Virus genome (UHGV): UHGV-1419674
Origin: a virus
Direction: 5' to 3' (one strand)
DNA length: 24,307 nt
In this document: positions 437 through 22,197 of the stretch, piece by piece
How positions within the stretch are numbered: the stretch's first letter is position 1
How the letters are laid out: every line of letters begins with the position of its first letter
Notes under the pieces: model-generated
Databases searched by the model: none
What the model was told of the DNA's origin: nothing
What the model saw: the letters and a program-made list of their open reading frames with translations, nothing else
Translations under genes and position numbers: made by a program

Positions 437-1744
437 TCAACTTTCAGATCCCGGCCCATCCGGTATATCGGAGCCATTGTTTGCTTCTGCCTGCTTCCGG
501 TTCCAGACGCTGTCTTCTGGCATATCCATACGAACATCGATCCAACTGCAGACCGGGACGTCGATCGGCTCGCCTTTGACTTTTATAATTTCGCCGTCAT
601 CAATCATCATGTATTTACGCCTGAACAGGCGGATCGTGATTTCGCCGCTTTCCGTCTCTTCTCCTTCGACAATGCCAAGTTCACCCATACCTCCTGGGTC
701 CATTGGTGGAATCAACTGCCAGCCTTGTGATGCCAGGCCAGACGAACCGGTAATCACATACACTCCGGTTTCCTGACGTGAAATACTGATACCTTCAGCT
801 TCTTCGTTTGCTGTGCCGCATCCACACCATGCAAAGCCATTTTTATCCACATCCATACGCTGGTTTTCTTCCTGCGATTTGACAATACGGGCGACCGGAG
901 AGGCGGACTTCAAAGTACCGTCACTGGATTTCGTCGTATTTGCCGTCGTGTAAACTTCATGCCAATTGTAGGTCTCGTTCTGTGCATGTGCCGTCTGAAT
1001 AAATGCCCGGCCATCAGTTGTCCATACAAACCACGTAGTCGATGGGGTGTTGTCAAACTGCAATTGCAAGCCTACACCATTCCCCTGCGGTTTATTAATT
1101 GTACTGCCAGTGTAGCGGCCAAAACCAATTAAGGTTGTATCAGAGAAATTATCTATATGACGCGCTACTGCCATCCCTATAGATTTTGCGCTAAAAAGAT
1201 TCTCTGAGTTAACGCCAGGCATTAATTTATCTATAGTTGCATTGGCCGTGGCAGCACTTCCGAGGCCTAGAGTTCTTCTCCCCCCTTCTGGGGTCGTTGC
1301 ACCGGTCCCGCCCTGATCAATCGGGAGAGCACCGTTGGTCCCTTTCTGTGCCAGCTTACCGATTCCGGGGATGGTCACGGGGGTGCCGTTTATGGTGACA
1401 GTGATGCTCTGGTTTGCTGATGTGGTGGCGAACGTCTCCCACGCGCCAATGTTCTCATCGTACTCGTTGATGAGCTGTGACATCGCCTGTGCCAGTCCAT
1501 CAACCGAGATAATGTCTGATACCAGAATGCCGTACTTCTGGCCGCTCAGCGCCGGGGAAGCAGCTGGAGTAACCGTCATTGACGTGGCGCTGTTCACGGA
1601 TGAAATCTGAAACAGCTGAACCGGGTTAGACATCACGATAATCGTCTGGCCAGCGCGGACCTGGCTGGCGGGAGCTGTCCAGTTTGTGCCGGAGCCGGTT
1701 GCGGTATTTCCGTTAATTGCGATGGTGCCGGTGTTATAAAGCAT
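437..1744 (-). CDS. Side tail fiber protein (435 aa)
   Basis: Located distal to J in the tail module; Gly/Thr/Ser/Asn-rich fibrous composition; AGGTAG-type RBS before the ATG at 1744. The N-terminus (MLYNTGTIAINGNTATGSG...) resembles prophage tail-fiber N-termini from memory. Confidence 0.7.
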   Translation of the reverse strand: MLYNTGTIAINGNTATGSGTNWTAPASQVRAGQTIIVMSNPVQLFQISSVNSATSMTVTPAASPALSGQKYGILVSDIISVDGLAQAMSQLINEYDENIGAWETFATTSANQSITVTINGTPVTIPGIGKLAQKGTNGALPIDQGGTGATTPEGGRRTLGLGSAATANATIDKLMPGVNSENLFSAKSIGMAVARHIDNFSDTTLIGFGRYTGSTINKPQGNGVGLQLQFDNTPSTTWFVWTTDGRAFIQTAHAQNETYNWHEVYTTANTTKSSDGTLKSASPVARIVKSQEENQRMDVDKNGFAWCGCGTANEEAEGISISRQETGVYVITGSSGLASQGWQLIPPMDPGGMGELGIVEGEETESGEITIRLFRRKYMMIDDGEIIKVKGEPIDVPVCSWIDVRMDMPEDSVWNRKQAEANNGSDIPDGPGSES

Positions 1745-1775
1745 GAACTACCTCACGATAATAACGATCGTTAAA

Positions 1776-1803
1776 AGCGATCAATCGTGTAAAATTGATC
1801 GCT
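1776..1803. promoter_or_regulatory. Perfect 10-bp inverted repeat AGCGATCAAT-N8-ATTGATCGCT in the divergent intergenic region between the tail fiber and lipoprotein genes; candidate operator
   Basis: Arms at 1776-1785 and 1794-1803 read directly from the sequence; AT-rich intergenic context 1745-1870. Confidence 0.3.
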
Positions 1804-1870
1804 CATATCAATCTGACTATTTTTTAAACTCAAATAAAATGGAAGTTCCCGCATAAACAGGAATGTTGAA

Positions 1871-2233
1871 ATGAAACTTTTATTTGCTGCAGCGCTTTTG
1901 CTGTTGGCTGGATGTACGAACAAACACACAGATAACGCATTCCAGATGGACTATCCCGTTGATGCCGCTCGTTTATCGCTGGGTGGCGATATTCACGTTA
2001 ATATCGACTGTGCCACCAGAGAAGTAGAAGTTATTTCAGACAGCAGCAACGGAATATTCAGCCGACATATTAAAAAACGGTTAAGTAATATTTGTTATAA
2101 AAAAACGGATAAGCTGGATGTGGTGTATCGCTTCAATTCAGCAAACGGCGTAAAACAAGATATGATCGCGACTCATTACCCGCGCGTTCCTCCCGTCTCA
2201 AATTCCAACAAACTGAGCAATGGGGATTCTTAG
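1871..2233 (+). CDS. Lipoprotein (120 aa), accessory gene on the opposite strand to the tail operon
   Basis: N-terminus MKLLFAAALLLLAGC has a hydrophobic signal peptide and LAGC lipobox; AGGA RBS 8 nt upstream; visibly AT-rich compared with flanking tail genes; 3' end overlaps the convergent 213-aa ORF by 36 bp. Confidence 0.65.
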   Translation: MKLLFAAALLLLAGCTNKHTDNAFQMDYPVDAARLSLGGDIHVNIDCATREVEVISDSSNGIFSRHIKKRLSNICYKKTDKLDVVYRFNSANGVKQDMIATHYPRVPPVSNSNKLSNGDS

Positions 2234-2839
2234 GCCTCGCCCCTGAAACGTCTGGCTCCAGCTGCGCTGATTATTTGAAATGTATCTGCCCTGCAGCTGT
2301 GAGCCAGTCCATTTGAGCACCACACCTGAATAACCGACGACCGTACCATCATCGCTGAGGTTTCCCGGGCAGTTGTTTACCAGAATCCAGGGGTTGAAAC
2401 TTAAACTGACTGAAAAGGTATTGTTCTGCAGGTCATAGTTTGCTGGTACATCAAAGAACCCAACGACTCTCGGCATCTTAGAGGCTGATGCAGCGCTCCA
2501 GATAAGGCTACCGGCACTGTCAAACACATCGAGATAACCACTCTGCATGCCAATATTTCGCGCAGTTCGGATCATGCTACCAGCATTATCTTCAAGCATA
2601 TCAGCACCAGGAAAACCGTATTTGTTTGTGCCCAGCTGCAGCCACCTTAAACGGCCGTCGTTCCAGAATGACTGCTGCGTAAAGCCGAGCGTACTGCCAT
2701 CACCAAACGGGCTGTTAACGCGGTAGGCACCTTTATCGGTTACGGCACCCAGCGTGCGCTGATCATAAAACAGGGTCGATCTGTTTTGTGAATCCACCAG
2801 CAGTTTTCCGTTGCTGTTGTAAACTTCGAATCCGCTCAT
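2198..2839 (-). CDS. Hypothetical tail-associated protein (213 aa), translationally coupled downstream of J
   Basis: Its ATG overlaps the stop of the upstream 100-aa ORF (ATGA at 2836-2839); same strand and GC content as the tail operon; no recognisable motif. Confidence 0.55.
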   Translation of the reverse strand: MSGFEVYNSNGKLLVDSQNRSTLFYDQRTLGAVTDKGAYRVNSPFGDGSTLGFTQQSFWNDGRLRWLQLGTNKYGFPGADMLEDNAGSMIRTARNIGMQSGYLDVFDSAGSLIWSAASASKMPRVVGFFDVPANYDLQNNTFSVSLSFNPWILVNNCPGNLSDDGTVVGYSGVVLKWTGSQLQGRYISNNQRSWSQTFQGRGLRIPIAQFVGI

Positions 2840-3138
2840 TGAAAGTTATAAACCTCAACATTGAGAGTGATTGCGGCACTTCCACCCGTGGGGAGATAGT
2901 AGAGAGTAAAGCCGCCGTTATAAGCGCGGCAAAAATACTCGTTTACAGTCACGCCAGTTGAAACGATGGTGACAAACGTCCCGTCCTGCGTTGCGCCAGA
3001 AAAAGCGACATTTTTTGACGTCTCTCCTGAAGCAAGCGAAACCGTTGCGCTGCCCATGTAACGGATCGCGTAATCGCTTAAATCCACTGCAACCCGCCCT
3101 GCACTGTCCCAGCATTGCAAACCCTGTGGCATTACCAT
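2836..3138 (-). CDS. Hypothetical tail-associated protein (about 98-100 aa), coupled to the J stop
   Basis: The J stop TAA (3132-3134) overlaps ATG candidates at 3138 and 3132 (TAATG coupling); the start is either 3138 or 3132. Confidence 0.5.
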   Translation of the reverse strand: MVMPQGLQCWDSAGRVAVDLSDYAIRYMGSATVSLASGETSKNVAFSGATQDGTFVTIVSTGVTVNEYFCRAYNGGFTLYYLPTGGSAAITLNVEVYNFQ

Positions 3139-6100
3139 AACCCCATTCTGACGCGCAGCACGTTGTTACTGTCATAGATACGAATGAGAGTGCTCGATAT
3201 CAGCATCCTCCCGCCCCCGGCCACGCCGTTAATTTCGAACGTTCCGCCCTTATCAAGCTTCCAGCCTGCAGTACCAGCCACATAGTTATTCGACTGGATA
3301 TAGTTGCCGATTTTGGCGTTCTCAATGGTGCCGTCCTGGATGAAGCTGGCCCGGATGAATGTCTGCCCGTTCTGGATCACAAACGGCAAAGCCACGCTAT
3401 TTCCGGCTGCCGTGGTGACGGCGAAGCGATCAGCCAGGAAGATAACCTGCGACTGCATGCCGGATGGCGTATTCTCCACGCCGATACCCATCCCCGCGGC
3501 GTAATACTGACCGTTGCTGGAAACGCCAACCTTGATGTTGTACATCGCGCTGAGGTCGCCATTAACGTTGGCTATCGCCTGAGCGTTAGTGGTGATGGCG
3601 GAGGTATGCCCGTTCACCGTCGCCGTTATGCCGTTTATCTGCGTGGCCGTAGCCTGCTGATAGTCGGAGAACGTCTGATTCAGGCTGTTTATGGATGCCT
3701 TGTTGCCGTTGACATCCGTCTGCAGGCTCAGCAGAGAACGCGCCGTTGCCTCCTTCTCGTTAACGATTACCTCATCAATACGATCCAGCTGCGCACTGTT
3801 CCCTGCGACCGAAGCTGACAACGATTTACGCGTAGCCACTTGTGCCAGCCCGTTCTGGATAATTGCGATAGCAGAGTTCTTCACCCCGCCCGTCATGCCG
3901 TCCATAGACACGCTGATGCTGTCGATTCGCTGGCCCAGTGCGGTATCAGCAGTCGCAACAGTCTGCTCAAGATCTGAGAGAGAAGACGACACATCACCGA
4001 CCGTGCTAGAAAGCTCATTAACGCTGGTCTGAACCTGCCCGATGTCCTGCGCGTTTTTTGCGATTTCCTGCGCCTGGAGTTCAAGTTCATCGTTGGCCTG
4101 TTTGATGTCGTCAGCCATGCCAGCAATTTTTTCATTGCTGTCCACAGCGTTCTCGATCAGGTCTTTGAACGTCTCAGATCCTTTGATGTCTTCAAGGATC
4201 ACATCTGTGATGTCAGAAACATCGATACTGGCCTGCCCACGAACCCAGCCGGTATAACCTGACTCGTTACCGCTGCGGTCAACCAGCTGCGCGCGGTACC
4301 AGAAAATCTGCCCAGCCTTAAGGCCCATCTGCTGATATTTGCGCTGCGGGTAAGGCACATCGGCCAGCAGCATGGCATCGTCTTCAGTACCGGTCAGGCT
4401 GTACTGAATTTCCGTCTTCAGCGTGTCGTCGGTATTCGCCGGGAATCCCCAGTTCAGCTCGATACCGAACACCACGTTTTCAGAGGCGATAAAGCCAACC
4501 GGCTTCGGTGGATTGCCCACTTTACCAGTCAGCGTTTTCTCTTCTGAATAGCCCCATCCGGATGAAATTTCTGCGGCATTGATGGCGCGTACACGTACCA
4601 GATAGCGCCCGGCATAAATCCCAGGAACGTCGAATGACGTGGTGGAACTGCGCGGCACGTTAACCCAGTTCCCGTCGTTGCGGCGCCATTGCGCTTCATA
4701 GGCGATAGCATTCTGCGCCTGGTCCCAGCTCACGCGCATGGTTTCGACGCTGATATTCTGCTGCACCACCGAAAACGAACTGATTACGATGTTGTCTGGC
4801 GGTGACTGATTGCCCGGCGGGATCACGCTCACCGGCCGCTGGTCAATAATGGCTCCGGTATCGATTCGGGCATATTTATCCGGATCGTGCCATGCACCGG
4901 TAATGGTGAAAGTGCCATCATCGTTATCAGTGACGCTCACAACACGGTACTGCTGTGCGTACAGTTCGTTTGACTCAACCACCCAGACAGCTTCGGCCTG
5001 CGGCGTCTCACTGTATGCGGTGGTGACTGTGACCGATTCCCCGTTAACCGCCTGAATTGTCCTGCTCTGTGACGCTCCGGAGGGAAGGTTGAGGATAAGG
5101 CGATCACCTGCTGCCGCATCAGCTACACGGTCAAGTTTGATAACGCGACCATTAACGGCGCTGATGCGTCCGCCCATAACCTTTCCGGAAAGCAGCTCGT
5201 CTGCCACAGCGATGATATAGCCAGGCTGCGGTATGTTTCCGTCCAGCCCGACATCGAACGAAACAACGCGATCCTTGTTGTTGGTGAGAATACCCCAGCG
5301 CCCCTTTCGGTTCGCTTCTGACTGTCTGGTACAACCAATGGCTGTCATTTCGAGCTGATTTGTGCCAAAGCGAGCAACGAGATCCTGCTCAAATACAGGC
5401 TCCATCGCATCCGCGTAGGCATTACCCGGATCGGACCAGGAAACCAGTGCTGTGGTATAGCGGGTTTTCGTGGTGCTGCCCGAATAGGTAAAGCGCCCAT
5501 TAACCACGTTTGCACGCGTGTAGCTGTAATCCACATCGCGGGGCATATCCGCCAGCGCAACGATTTGATCGCCACCCCAGTAAGTCATGCCCCGGAATAT
5601 CGCCGCAAAATCTCGTAACACGGTATAGGCGTCATTCCTCTCCTGCACATACACGTTGCAGGTATAGCGAGGCTCAGTGCCGCTACCGCCTTTACCATCA
5701 GGAACCGGCTGATCGCAATATTGCGCGACCTGGTAAAGCGTCCATTTATCAATATTGGCCGCCGTCAGGCGATTGCCCAGCCCAAAGCGGTCGCTCACCA
5801 CCAGATCGTAAAAAATCCAGGCTGGATTATCCGTCCACGCCCACTTAAACGCCCCCGTCCATGTGCCGCTATAGGTGCGGGTCTCCGGGTCATACGTATC
5901 CGGAACGCGGATTACACGCCCTCGCGGTTCGCAGGATATTTGCGGGATAGAGCCGTTAAACTGGCTTGAGTCGAATTCGATGTACAGCAGCGCGGTATTT
6001 GGATAACGCAGTTTGGCGTCAATGACCTCTGTATAGCTCTGCAGCGTCATCGTGTCACCAATTTTCGCGCTGTTGGCATCCGCCGTTAGCTTACGCAGGC

Positions 6101-6662
6101 GCACCGTCCATGTGCTGCCTGCCTGCGGTAGGTCAATGCGATGGCTGCGTTCGTAGCCGGAAGTTGTCTTGCCGGTTACGCTGGTATTAAGTACCGTCTG
6201 CCAGGTGCCGCCATCGGTCTGCAGATCAATAGCGTAGTTAATTGAATAGCCAACCAGATCGCCATCATCCTCCTGTTTAAAAAGCGATGGCCACTTGAGG
6301 CGCAGGCGAACGGCTGACAGTTGCGTGTTGGTAAAGGTATGTGTCCAGCCGGTGGTGCTTGACACTTCGGTGCCCACGCTGATTTCATTTTCGGTGCCGG
6401 GGATACCCTGAATATATTTTTGTGCCTGAGTCCCCGGACGAAATTCCCACGTAACGCCGCTGAAGTTTTGGGAGCCGTCGGCGTTCTCCAGCGCCGTTCC
6501 GTCCAGGTAGATATCCTTCCCGGTGAGCTGTCCAGCAAACTCCCCTTCCCCAAGCGCAACGAGGATCTTTGCCTTCGCTACAGATTGCAGATCATCAGGC
6601 TGTTCGGTGGGAGTTCGGGAACTGGAGCTCCCGCCTTTTCGTCCGGTAATTGTTTTAGCCAT
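3132..6662 (-). CDS. J: Tail tip / host specificity protein J (central tail fiber), 1176 aa
   Basis: Size and position after I match lambda J (1132 aa); the C-terminal receptor-binding region is diverged from lambda J as recalled. Confidence 0.93.
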   Translation of the reverse strand: MAKTITGRKGGSSSSRTPTEQPDDLQSVAKAKILVALGEGEFAGQLTGKDIYLDGTALENADGSQNFSGVTWEFRPGTQAQKYIQGIPGTENEISVGTEVSSTTGWTHTFTNTQLSAVRLRLKWPSLFKQEDDGDLVGYSINYAIDLQTDGGTWQTVLNTSVTGKTTSGYERSHRIDLPQAGSTWTVRLRKLTADANSAKIGDTMTLQSYTEVIDAKLRYPNTALLYIEFDSSQFNGSIPQISCEPRGRVIRVPDTYDPETRTYSGTWTGAFKWAWTDNPAWIFYDLVVSDRFGLGNRLTAANIDKWTLYQVAQYCDQPVPDGKGGSGTEPRYTCNVYVQERNDAYTVLRDFAAIFRGMTYWGGDQIVALADMPRDVDYSYTRANVVNGRFTYSGSTTKTRYTTALVSWSDPGNAYADAMEPVFEQDLVARFGTNQLEMTAIGCTRQSEANRKGRWGILTNNKDRVVSFDVGLDGNIPQPGYIIAVADELLSGKVMGGRISAVNGRVIKLDRVADAAAGDRLILNLPSGASQSRTIQAVNGESVTVTTAYSETPQAEAVWVVESNELYAQQYRVVSVTDNDDGTFTITGAWHDPDKYARIDTGAIIDQRPVSVIPPGNQSPPDNIVISSFSVVQQNISVETMRVSWDQAQNAIAYEAQWRRNDGNWVNVPRSSTTSFDVPGIYAGRYLVRVRAINAAEISSGWGYSEEKTLTGKVGNPPKPVGFIASENVVFGIELNWGFPANTDDTLKTEIQYSLTGTEDDAMLLADVPYPQRKYQQMGLKAGQIFWYRAQLVDRSGNESGYTGWVRGQASIDVSDITDVILEDIKGSETFKDLIENAVDSNEKIAGMADDIKQANDELELQAQEIAKNAQDIGQVQTSVNELSSTVGDVSSSLSDLEQTVATADTALGQRIDSISVSMDGMTGGVKNSAIAIIQNGLAQVATRKSLSASVAGNSAQLDRIDEVIVNEKEATARSLLSLQTDVNGNKASINSLNQTFSDYQQATATQINGITATVNGHTSAITTNAQAIANVNGDLSAMYNIKVGVSSNGQYYAAGMGIGVENTPSGMQSQVIFLADRFAVTTAAGNSVALPFVIQNGQTFIRASFIQDGTIENAKIGNYIQSNNYVAGTAGWKLDKGGTFEINGVAGGGRMLISSTLIRIYDSNNVLRVRMGLW

Positions 6663-19513: not shown

Positions 19514-21435
19514 TATTCCTCTCCAGATAATGCCCGCGCGTAATCCGCCAGGGTCTTGTTATTGTTACGGCTGCCTTCTTCCTCCAGCAGGCTGGCCAGA
19601 AGTGAATCAAGATTTAGCTGCCAGCGGGATATGCTGATACGAAGCGCCGCCAGTGCATAAACAAAGCAATCGAGCGCCTCATTTCGTCGTTTTTTGCTGT
19701 CCCAGACGATCTTTTTCTTTCCGTCTACCCATTTTTCCACCTGCTCTTCAGCAGTTAGTTGTTGGGCCTCGGTTAGATCGTAGATTTCTGGGTTATTCGG
19801 GAAATGAACCGCTCCCGCCAGCGGCTCGTCTCTTTGCGCCACCAGCGTGAAACGGTTATAAATCTGCTCTTTTGCGGTGTCTGTTCCTACCTCAGTGAGG
19901 TAAACGCCACTCTTGTTACGCTTGCGTGGCATGTTCGCCACCGGCTTTCCATAAACCGACGCACCCTTTATAGGGATCACACGAAACAGACCATGTTTTT
20001 TTGAGCGGTTGTAGACGATGGTGGGATCAATGCCGCCAATATCCCAGCAAGTGCGGGATATAACCATTTCGAGACCGTTCTGGCGCTTATATGTCCTGTT
20101 GATCGCCTCATCCACTCGAGCGAGAGTCGACTCATCATCATGACGACCCATAACGATGATTTTGTCGATAAGCCAGCTTTCCTCTCCCGGTCCCCATCCC
20201 CATACACGCATTTCGTAACGGTCAAGCTGGGAGTCAATACCCGCTGTTAGATATGCCACTCGCTCCGGCACAGACGCTTCAAAGTGCTCTTTGCGCTCCG
20301 CTAAAACTTCAGCATCGGGTCGTTCGCCTATTTTCGGTTCCCACGTTTCGCCCAAGGTCGTGTTAACGAAGGTTTTGCGCTTACCCGTATCACCTTTTGT
20401 TTTTATCCAGTCCTTGACGATCTGCACCCAAGTTGTGAACGGGCTGTAAGCGGTCCAGATGTGGAATGTAACGCTGTCAGGAGGTTCAATTTCAGTACCG
20501 GATGAAGCAAACCAGTGAAGGCCGTCTCGCGTCCAGATACCTGTTTCATCACAAATATACCTGGCCTCAAGGAAATCCAGCTCTTGTTGTTTAATCACAC
20601 AGGCATTGTGTTCACAGAGGTAGTAAACGCTGGAAGGTTCTCCCGGAGACCATTTAAAGCCAAATGGTGTCTCTTCATCGCCAAATTTCAGATACTGCTC
20701 TTCCCCGCAGTGTGGGCATGGAACATGGAACCGAAGAAAATGTTCTGACTCCTTAGCAGCCCTTTCTATCTGGCACGTACCTTTGACTTTCGGTGTAGAG
20801 CCGCGAATGGATTTTGGCCATACAGAACCCTCAATACGCTTATCTCCCAGAAAGGTGGGAGAACCTTCTTTCTCGATGTCATCATCGAAAGCGGCAAGCT
20901 CGTCGTAGCCAGCCACATCAACGGATTTTTCACGGTAGTTTTTTGCAGCCTTACCGCCCAGGCACCAGAAACCACGACCATTTGAGAAACGCTTCATGCT
21001 AAGCGTATTGTCCCGGTGTTTTTTGCCGTACCAAGGAGCAAGCGCCAACAGCGTCGGAATATCACGAATGGTCGGTTCGACATGAGACTTCATGAAGTTT
21101 TCAGCGTCACCGTCGGTTGGCAACCATATTAGGGAGTTACGCTGTTTATGCTGGATGAAATATGCGTAAACGCCGAGCAACATTTTTGAGTAGCCGACAC
21201 GAGCAGATTTAACGACATTCACTTCGCGGATATAGTCATTGCCCATCGCATTCATAATTGCACGCTGAAAGGGCAGTGTTTCCCAGCGCCCTTCCTGGTA
21301 GGCAGACTCTTTCGGGAGATAGTAATTCTCATCTGCCCATTCAACCGCTGTTTGCGGTTCTGGCCGGTAAAGCGAACGTAGCCCCGCCCGCGCAGAGTGC
21401 TGCAGCCCCTTAACCTGACTGTTCGATATATTCAC
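19513..21435 (-). CDS. A: Terminase large subunit A (640 aa)
   Basis: Size (lambda gpA 641 aa), position after nu1 with 26-bp overlap. Confidence 0.96.
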
Positions 21436-21955
21436 TCAGCAACCCCGGTATCATTTCATCCAGCGCAGCTGCTTTGTTCATGGCCTTAATGATGTCCTTC
21501 TTGAGGAAATCAATATGTCGGTTCTCCAGCTCCGGGAAGCGCCGCTGAACCGACAGAGGTATTCCATCGAGAATACTGGCAATTTCTCCGGCTACCCGCG
21601 ACAGCACGAACGTGCAGAATGCGGTCTCCACCACTTCAGCGGACTCTTTTGCATTTTTTAATTCCTGAGCGTCAGCCTGAGCTCGCGTAAGTCGGTGTCG
21701 CTCATATTCAATAGTGCCAGGTTGAAGATCGGACTCAGAAGCAATGCGGAGATCTTCAACTTCCTTCCGCAACTTTTCATTTTCTATGGCTGCATCGCGC
21801 GCACTGTACCATTCGATTGCGGCAGCAGATTCAAAGAGAACCTCATTACCCTTGCCACCACCGCGGGCAACCGGCATACCTTGTTCCTGCCAGTTCTGAA
21901 TCGTTCGGACGCTCACCCCGAAAATTTCGGATAAGCGTTTTTTGTTAACCTCCAT
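21410..21955 (-). CDS. nu1: Terminase small subunit Nu1 (181 aa)
   Basis: Near-identical to lambda Nu1 along its length ([157 protein letters not shown]); AGGAG RBS. Confidence 0.96.
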   Translation of the reverse strand: MEVNKKRLSEIFGVSVRTIQNWQEQGMPVARGGGKGNEVLFESAAAIEWYSARDAAIENEKLRKEVEDLRIASESDLQPGTIEYERHRLTRAQADAQELKNAKESAEVVETAFCTFVLSRVAGEIASILDGIPLSVQRRFPELENRHIDFLKKDIIKAMNKAAALDEMIPGLLSEYIEQSG

Positions 21956-22130
21956 GGCTCACTCCTGGCACAAAACAGAGAAAGGAAACAATCAACGGTT
22001 AACTTCCGTTTTCCATGATTAGCATTTCCTTTCTGGAGAGAGGATGTTTTCAACAAAAACAATGAGAAAACAAGAAGAAGAACGGAAATGGCATAAACCA
22101 GAAAATTTTCATAAATAGCGATAATCTGCG

Positions 22131-22142
22131 CGGACGCCGCCC
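22131..22142 (-). other. cosN: Predicted 12-nt cohesive end (cosN) GGGCGGCGTCCG on the minus strand
   Basis: Corresponds to lambda GGGCGGCGACCT with two differences at positions 10 and 12; flanked by the conserved GTTACG right-end sequence. Confidence 0.7.
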
Positions 22143-22172
22143 CGTAACAAGGCGGATCGCCGGAAAGGACCC

Positions 22173-22197
22173 GCAAATGATAATGATTATCATTTGC
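22173..22197. repeat. Perfect 25-bp palindrome GCAAATGATAATGATTATCATTTGC upstream of cosN
   Basis: Read directly from the sequence; lambda has an imperfect version (GATAATGATTATCA) at the same position of its right end. Confidence 0.9.

Follow-up and report, generated by a model that had tools for sequence, protein, structure and literature searches.

A lipid-anchored SIP-1 homologue with a TonB-like modelled fold as a candidate receptor-masking exclusion factor of HK639-like temperate phages

The small lipoprotein Llp of phage T5 binds the periplasmic face of FhuA and blocks phage outside by reverse allostery, holding the FhuA plug in a non-native conformation and folding loops 7 and 8 inward (PMC9586334). 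In 2025 a protein of phage IsaakIselin (Bas10), QXV80559, was named SIP-1 and was placed by AlphaFold2-multimer on the periplasmic side of PqqU (formerly YncD), the pyrroloquinoline quinone (PQQ) transporter, where it was described as inducing a conformational change, with the receptor-binding proteins RBP-1 and RBP-2 modelled on the extracellular face (PMC12124388). An accessory protein of phage Rtp is presented, in a 2026 preprint, as an exclusion factor that is encoded at a hypervariable receptor-binding protein (RBP) locus downstream of gpJ and binds the periplasmic face of LptD (bioRxiv 10.64898/2026.04.02.716166). Here we describe a gene for a 120-amino-acid (aa) lipoprotein in UHGV-1419674, a 24,307-nucleotide (nt) stretch of viral DNA referred to as the window, which an earlier inspection of the letters alone (the sequence-only reading) had put forward as a candidate superinfection-exclusion lipoprotein. 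We assign its product to the SIP-1 family from its homology, fold, export signal and context; the new elements are its lipid-anchored form, its wide presence in temperate prophages, its antisense overlapping layout and a prediction of the receptor.

The sequence-only reading had described a plus-strand open reading frame (ORF) with a lipoprotein signal and the lipobox LLAGC, set in AT-rich DNA, overlapping a convergent 213-aa ORF by 36 base pairs (bp) and lying between two J-coupled ORFs and the tail-fibre gene, and each of these points was borne out (Table 1). The GC content was 0.365-0.42 over 1701-2200 and 0.49-0.58 in both flanks, the stretch common to the lipoprotein gene and the 213-aa ORF was 2198-2233, and the J-coupled ORFs (100 and 213 aa) and the tail-fibre gene were all on the minus strand. 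A Shine-Dalgarno sequence, AGGA, was located 8 nt upstream of the ATG. The product opens with MKLLFAAALLLLAGCTNKH, in which K2 and a hydrophobic core of 11 residues lead to the lipobox L-A-G-C, ending in Cys15, with Thr at position +2; both signal peptide and lipobox were called by motif. The homologous stretch was gathered from six phages (HK639, LMessi, CharmingMan, LLS, Flotzy and Eeyore), with a further sample of 11 loci in bacterial genomes and 80 IMG/VR contigs. Compared with 13 homologous loci, nucleotide differences at codon positions 1, 2 and 3 of the plus-strand frame numbered 155:63:564, and the median ratio of nonsynonymous to synonymous substitution rates (dN/dS) against 62 distinct homologues was 0.067, falling to 0.039 within residues 26-90. 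Together, these data indicated that 1871-2233 is a real gene under strong purifying selection and no chance ORF. An intact 120-aa gene was also found in HK639 (NC_016158) at 6172-6534 (+), where the reference annotation omits it and instead carries a 52-aa ORF on the opposite strand, HK639_26, at 6072-6230 (-), equivalent to 1771-1929 (-) of the window. We rejected the latter as a true gene: it looks mis-annotated because the antisense ORF is broken by stops in related loci (3 of 14), and the substitutions fit the plus-strand frame.

The only strong match of the 120-aa protein was phrog_25729 of PHROGs, labeled 'unknown function', over its full length (E 5.6e-68), and no named family was found for it in Pfam, PADLOC or PHROGs. 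Using BLASTP, the protein aligned with SIP-1 of IsaakIselin at 33% identity over 88 aa (E 3e-16); a profile of the family recovered Drexlerviridae-type members at E 1e-15 to 1e-20, and a translated search returned distant homologues of 31-51% identity in 37 further phage records, almost all from T1-like phages of Escherichia and Klebsiella, bas10_0024 (QXV80559) of IsaakIselin being one of these. The family is small, with 21 cluster representatives at E <= 0.001 among 1.84 billion proteins, and the three structural matches obtained in BFVD each had 34-40% sequence identity to the query. Three forms of the protein were seen. The lipid-anchored form was found in temperate HK639-like prophages of Enterobacter, E. 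coli, Pseudescherichia, Kosakonia, Franconibacter and Siccibacter, and a Cys in lipobox-like context was present in all 78 distinct prophage-type homologues (66 canonical, 12 with MFGC). In E. coli, the residue that follows the lipobox Cys governs outer-membrane sorting (the '+2 rule'), and since none of the 66 canonical homologues has Asp at +2, the 120-aa lipoprotein is predicted to reside in the outer membrane. The second form, whose members come from virulent Drexlerviridae phages, bears an ordinary signal peptide. The third form (196-271 aa; P0058, P0062, P0063 and P0065) has an N-terminal extension and a hydrophobic segment ahead of the TonB-like domain, occurs also in KW1E_UTAR (MZ506873; 256 aa, 2982-3752), and may represent either miscalled start codons or a membrane-anchored variant.

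The core of the protein was found to resemble TonB's C-terminal domain (CTD). In NCBIfam, the single match was a weak one, to enterobacterial TonB in its C-terminal part (residues 28-88, E 0.0025), which at 17.7 bits missed the cut-off of 265. When all Protein Data Bank (PDB) sequences were searched with a profile of 26 homologues, five chains only were matched, all of them TonB CTDs (best E 0.0043), and the top matches of a profile built from 20 more diverse members were eight TonB chains (E 0.014-0.17). An AlphaFold2 model, with a predicted local distance difference test (pLDDT) score of 82-94 at residues 31-90, showed the order helix, strand, strand, helix, strand, and when it was compared with the PDB by Foldseek the first nine places were all taken by TonB CTDs, with probabilities up to 1.00; the TonB complex structures 2gsk and 2grx were among the top structural matches. 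In addition, Tyr28-Pro29 of the family aligned on the 'YP' motif of TonB. The 120-aa protein has neither a transmembrane anchor nor a Pro-rich region, a linker of about 12 residues separating the lipoprotein signal from the domain. Given that it stays below threshold in Pfam TonB_C and is devoid of the membrane anchor and Pro-rich spacer, we conclude that the protein, as modelled, has a TonB-CTD-like fold yet is no TonB.

Pro29, Ala32, Arg34, Cys47 and Cys75 were unchanged in 20 of 20 diverse members, and since two invariant cysteines in a periplasmic protein are involved, a Cys47-Cys75 disulfide is probably formed. The tail that follows the core was modelled as disordered (pLDDT < 50 at residues 97-107), and its motif and R105 were common to lipoprotein and non-lipoprotein members alike. 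A stretch of this tail, Q-D-M-I-A-T (residues 96-105, 2156-2185), resembles the TonB box Q-T-M-I-V-S of PqqU, which lies within ADEQTMIVSAAP in the mature N-terminus of the E. coli K-12 protein used for the comparison; the match is short and may be due to chance.

We then considered the company that the gene keeps. Among 100 loci with a lipoprotein homologue, an RBP-1 homologue was adjacent in 99, RBP-2 was present in 96 and J in 95, and the convergent overlapping layout of the window was seen in 90. Similarly, all 44 phage records with a SIP homologue fell among the 59 records with an RBP-1 homologue; in KW1E_UTAR the SIP-type gene lies about 29 kb from the RBP-1 homologue, in the same genome nonetheless. 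In related loci, identity to the window was 28-98% for J and 43-99% for RBP-1, and because J varies while the module stays together, SIP, RBP-1 and RBP-2 move between tails as a cassette. The proposal that the protein is matched to the receptor used by the J protein of this phage thus stood in part, as a specificity for the receptor of the phage, and failed as regards J, since the specificity fits the RBP-2/RBP-1 homologues.

The 213-aa protein was 50% identical to RBP-1 of IsaakIselin over 215 aa (E 9e-72) and the 100-aa protein was 35% identical to its RBP-2 (E 4e-16). The former falls within the YncD-specific RBP family, which is defined at this locus by > 30% identity, and the four receptor-specific RBP families at the gpJ-downstream locus are reported to be unrelated (bioRxiv 10.64898/2026.04.02.716166). 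Dependence on PqqU/YncD has been experimentally established for IME347, Bas10 and Bas11, and also for the Klebsiella phages KLB19 and KLB26 (PMC13412088); homologues of both RBP-1 and SIP were present in five of these five phages. Within the BASEL phages, matches were obtained solely in the two YncD-dependent ones, and no homologue was found in those targeting FhuA, BtuB or LptD. A search of the literature on the receptors of LMessi, CharmingMan, Flotzy and HK639 returned nothing useful. PqqU/YncD is therefore the receptor that we predict for the window phage from the kinship of its receptor-binding proteins.

Set beside SIP-1, the window protein shares the TonB-CTD-like fold, the two invariant cysteines, the YP motif, the C-terminal motif and an export signal, and both genes adjoin RBP-1 and RBP-2 beside J. 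The two differ in that SIP-1 has a signal of the signal-peptidase-I type without a lipobox, and so is soluble in the periplasm, whereas the window protein is a lipoprotein with its linker of about 12 residues. SIP-1 belongs to a Drexlerviridae phage that is virulent, and its gene runs in the direction of RBP-2 and RBP-1 and converges with J; the window gene, in contrast, is part of a temperate lambdoid phage and stands alone on the opposite strand, with its 36-bp overlap with RBP-1 and a promoter-like site of its own. T5 Llp is likewise a small outer-membrane lipoprotein with a cysteine pair (in Llp an intramolecular disulfide) and a gene beside that for receptor binding; no Llp chain appeared among the structural matches listed for the window protein, and Llp is likened to it by description. 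The accessory protein of Rtp, also compared by description, is alike in acting from the periplasmic side on the phage's own receptor and differs in that this receptor, LptD, is not TonB-dependent.

The Cor proteins of phi80, N15 and T1 are, similarly, small lipobox-bearing lipoproteins that exclude via the phage's own TonB-dependent receptor; unlike the window protein, Cor has 77 aa, is not TonB-like, targets FhuA and is encoded in the same orientation as J. The gene order in phi80 runs from J through gp22 (100 aa) and gp23 (224 aa) to cor and the tail fibre, so that cor takes the slot that the lipoprotein gene has in the window. The lipoprotein showed no detectable similarity to phi80 Cor in BLASTP (E = 2.0), as the sequence-only reading had expected for Cor and Bor, and the 213-aa protein did not resemble phi80 gp23; to be unlike gp23 and Cor yet in the same slot is what would be expected if the cassette is swapped whole according to receptor, FhuA in the case of phi80. 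Membership in the Cor, Llp or Bor families was rejected, as there were no matches to them in Pfam, PHROGs, NCBIfam or PADLOC. For Bor and the o-spanin Rz1, this absence from Pfam, PHROGs and NCBIfam goes together with a setting among tail genes and the lack of an overlapping same-strand partner. The window protein is thus distinct from Cor and Bor, as had been supposed, and it is no orphan, being a SIP-1 homologue with a core of TonB CTD fold; it would work like Llp and Cor without apparent kinship to either. It differs, finally, from the TonB CTD itself (E. coli TonB, Pectobacterium FusB) in having no inner-membrane anchor, Pro-rich spacer or ExbBD coupling, because of which it cannot transduce energy, and in its predicted tether to the outer membrane, a probable added disulfide and a 30-residue tail.

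Given this homology, fold and context (the phi80 cor slot and the 99 of 100 loci), which favor the exclusion role first suspected from the lipobox and gene position, we put a probability of roughly 0.7 on the protein being a SIP-1-family superinfection-exclusion (receptor-masking) factor that is lipid-anchored and blocks the phage's own receptor, PqqU/YncD. In the mechanism we envisage, the gene would be transcribed from its own conserved promoter candidate, antisense to the late tail operon, and because the promoter is its own, production in the lysogen would be independent of the late genes. The precursor would be exported, lipidated on Cys15 and, by the known sequence rules, placed by Lol in the outer membrane's inner leaflet, where the linker would hold the predicted TonB-CTD-like module, with its putative Cys47-Cys75 disulfide, at the periplasmic face. 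Module and conserved tail would then dock on the periplasmic side of PqqU/YncD, at the TonB box and plug region, and the docked receptor would be held in a state whose extracellular loops refuse RBP-1 and RBP-2, in the manner of T5 Llp on FhuA. Incoming phages that use this class of receptor would neither adsorb nor inject, progeny would not be lost on cell debris and, as a side effect, PQQ import through PqqU would be blocked.

Several points weigh against this interpretation. Exclusion is a prediction for the whole family, including SIP-1, whose role derives purely from structure prediction; lipidation, outer-membrane sorting and the disulfide are read from sequence rules; and the receptor of the window phage and of HK639-type phages is deduced from 50% identity in RBP-1. 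The window protein had no match to Pfam TonB_C (PF03544) at E <= 1, and just 1 of 20 family members reached E 0.1. Promoter-like sites were no more numerous in the region than in shuffled sequences, the promoter candidate being a consensus match only. In addition, Bas10 plates equally on a tonB mutant, which weakens simple competition with TonB as the exclusion mechanism; because of this equal plating, mere TonB competition cannot explain exclusion and allostery on the outer loops must be assumed. A more elaborate scenario, which strikes us as rather unlikely, is that temperate lambdoid phages turned a copy of the host's TonB CTD into an outer-membrane-tethered decoy for the TonB box and plug of PqqU, a lysogenic conversion that would shut one route of phage entry and silence PQQ uptake by the host, with possible further layers of control: the QDMIAT tail (compare QTMIVS of PqqU) might act as a pseudo-TonB-box, either engaging TonB or inhibiting its own domain, and a palindrome with three GATC sites upstream of the promoter candidate might make its expression methylation-dependent and possibly phase-variable.

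An alternative that shares the periplasmic docking is that the TonB-like domain fills the TonB box of PqqU and excludes TonB, so that PQQ-loaded PqqU stays closed with loops 7/8 down; exclusion would then need trace PQQ in the medium and would not be an Llp-like allosteric jam. A TonB-CTD fold is suited to binding a TonB box by strand addition (2gsk, 2grx), and this is a real alternative because the protection that PQQ gives against Bas10 is about 1000-fold better in tonB mutants than in the wild type and because the modelled RBP complex clashes with the closed state that PQQ binding brings (PMC12124388). E. coli makes no PQQ, however, so that such protection would fail in PQQ-free settings, the conserved tail and conserved residues off the strand-pairing edge suggest contacts beyond the TonB box, and SIP-1 was described as inducing a conformational change (PMC12124388); on balance we judge a trap of this kind unlikely.

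TonB boxes are similar across TonB-dependent transporters, and a protein with the fold of TonB itself could in principle bind those of FhuA, BtuB, FepA, Cir and others and give broad protection from phages and colicins. We consider such a general antagonism very unlikely because the gene is strictly linked with a single class of RBP allele (in 99 of 100 loci and in 44 of 44 phage genomes); moreover, the gene is absent from the FhuA-, BtuB- and LptD-targeting BASEL phages searched, and blocked uptake of iron and B12 would presumably be costly to a lysogen. The protein might, finally, not be a receptor blocker at all and serve instead in lysis as a protein of the o-spanin type, in serum resistance or virulence as a Bor- or Lom-like factor, or in tail assembly as a helper. 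Lambdoid phages bear several small lipoprotein and outer-membrane 'moron' genes, and the AT-rich layout with its own promoter is generic for these. Nevertheless, Bor, spanin and other families were unmatched in Pfam, PHROGs, NCBIfam and PADLOC, the gene lies outside any lysis cassette and has no i-spanin gene as a partner, an exported lipoprotein should be unable to act in cytoplasmic tail assembly, and the strict RBP-1 linkage would be left unexplained, all of which makes these roles highly improbable.

The signals surrounding the gene were next examined. The 126-nt spacer 1745-1870 is better conserved than synonymous sites, with a mean window-base frequency of 0.81 against 0.63 at third codon positions. 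The promoter candidate was the sole promoter-like site in 1400-2700, and both of its hexamers were identical in 14 loci (the divergent L009 included). A prophage moron is typically recognised by low GC, the opposite strand and a promoter-like site of its own, and this moron-like layout suggests that the lipoprotein is expressed in the lysogen. The perfect 10-bp inverted repeat that had been pointed out upstream of the gene was also recovered; its arms are 8 nt apart, and it extends imperfectly to 20 nt (1766-1785 and 1794-1813, 80%). The chance of a perfect 10-bp repeat in the 126-nt spacer is about 0.002 by a rough estimate. The 8-bp core, CGATCAAT-N8-ATTGATCG, was kept in 14 of 14 aligned loci, the most divergent included, and outer arm positions changed in one arm while their partners did not (AGCG to AACG). 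Such one-sided changes speak against a covarying structured RNA; with only the 8-bp core fixed, the repeat would suit a DNA site or a simple hairpin. On minus-strand RNA, the repeat forms the dominant hairpin. Three GATC (Dam) sites at 1766, 1779 and 1797, within 35 bp, lie in or beside the repeat, 1766-1800 being the sole spot in the 24.3-kb window with three GATC within 40 bp, and such a cluster might point to regulation that responds to methylation, which some prophage surface-modification operons have. We rejected a Fur box in the promoter region of the lipoprotein gene, the best match (13/19) being equaled by several random window sites.

On the minus strand, two terminator-like hairpins with T-rich tails were observed at 1846-1863 and 1765-1783, in the interval from the 213-aa ORF to the tail-fibre gene, and tail-fibre expression may depend on read-through of these by antitermination. 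Because the tail-fibre gene is downstream in the late operon, late transcription must cross the lipoprotein gene in antisense. The long hairpin 3' of the lipoprotein stop had a minimum free energy of -34.9 kcal/mol (z = -3.64), with 0 of 200 shuffles folding as well. At least 94% of 53 distinct homologues retained its core pairs, with few compensatory changes, mainly because the overlapping RBP-1 codons are conserved; a role as terminator or messenger RNA (mRNA) stabiliser is a possibility.

Table 1. Coordinates of the lipoprotein gene, its parts, its expression signals and the neighbouring tail genes in the window.
Feature	Position	Strand	Remarks
120-aa prolipoprotein gene, SIP-1 homologue (PHROG 25729)	1871..2233	+	ORF, phrog match, codon bias, dN/dS
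Signal peptide and lipobox L-A-G-C	1871..1915	+	read from sequence
TonB CTD-like core, residues 26-90	1946..2140	+	YP motif, Cys47, Cys75
C-terminal tail, residues 91-120	2141..2230	+	modelled disordered; motif D-M-I-A-T-x-x-x-R (residues 97-105)
Perfect 10-bp inverted repeat, 8-nt spacer	1776..1803		AGCGATCAAT (1776-1785) / ATTGATCGCT (1794-1803); directly 5' of -35 hexamer
Sigma-70-like promoter candidate	1813..1840	+	CTGACT-16 nt-TAAAAT; 31 nt 5' of ATG; consensus match
Long hairpin, candidate terminator or 3' stabiliser of lipoprotein mRNA	2252..2307	+	19 nt 3' of lipoprotein stop, inside RBP-1 coding region
213-aa RBP-1 homologue (QXV80560), predicted PqqU/YncD-binding	2198..2839	-	phrog_4524; last 36 bp overlap lipoprotein gene
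100-aa RBP-2 homologue (QXV80561)	2836..3138	-	phrog_7961
J-like central tail fibre / tail tip protein, 1176 aa	3132..6662	-	translationally coupled to two small ORFs
Lateral tail-fibre gene	437..1744	-	phrog_1591 (E 1.9e-126), Pfam Phage_tail_C_2; downstream in late operon

With regard to the neighbouring tail genes, the J protein of the window was 40-97% identical to the J proteins of related loci. The N-terminal segment of the 100-aa ORF product, about 45 residues, resembled the N-terminus of phi80 gp22 (phi80 locus 6211-6510; E 4e-5), a part that is shared although phi80 and the window phage differ in receptor, and this shared segment is probably an adaptor that docks exchangeable receptor-binding proteins on J. 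In phage LLS (PQ299149), at 3974-6544, the tail-fibre gene adjacent to the module is annotated with an invertible segment, a Fin-type DNA invertase and flanking inverted repeats. Elsewhere in the window, a perfect 25-bp palindrome, GCAAATGATAAT-G-ATTATCATTTGC, was noted at 22173-22197; it agrees with 17 of the 19 positions of the Fur-box consensus. It borders 22040-22193, which is 83% identical to the lambda cos site, upstream of the small terminase gene at 21410-21955 (-), and may be a candidate Fur site or a packaging element. The GC content at the start of the window was 0.36-0.40 over the first 400 bases.

Blocking of the receptor from the periplasmic side is emerging as the common exclusion route of siphoviruses, with Llp acting on FhuA and the Rtp protein on LptD. 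The TonB-like class had been noticed once before, in silico and in a virulent phage; as a lipid-anchored module it is now seen to be widespread in temperate HK639-like prophages, at about 100 loci, and it brings with it a direct receptor prediction, PqqU/YncD, for HK639-like phages. The analysis also identifies a putative lysogenic-conversion gene that the reference annotation misses or miscalls. As a single gene of 120 codons' worth of product, it offers a simple system for learning how TonB mimicry can jam a TonB-dependent transporter. If the proposed function is true, it would bear on host-range prediction in phage therapy and on the engineering of phage-resistant production strains, and lysogens of these phages would be swapping PQQ uptake for phage resistance.

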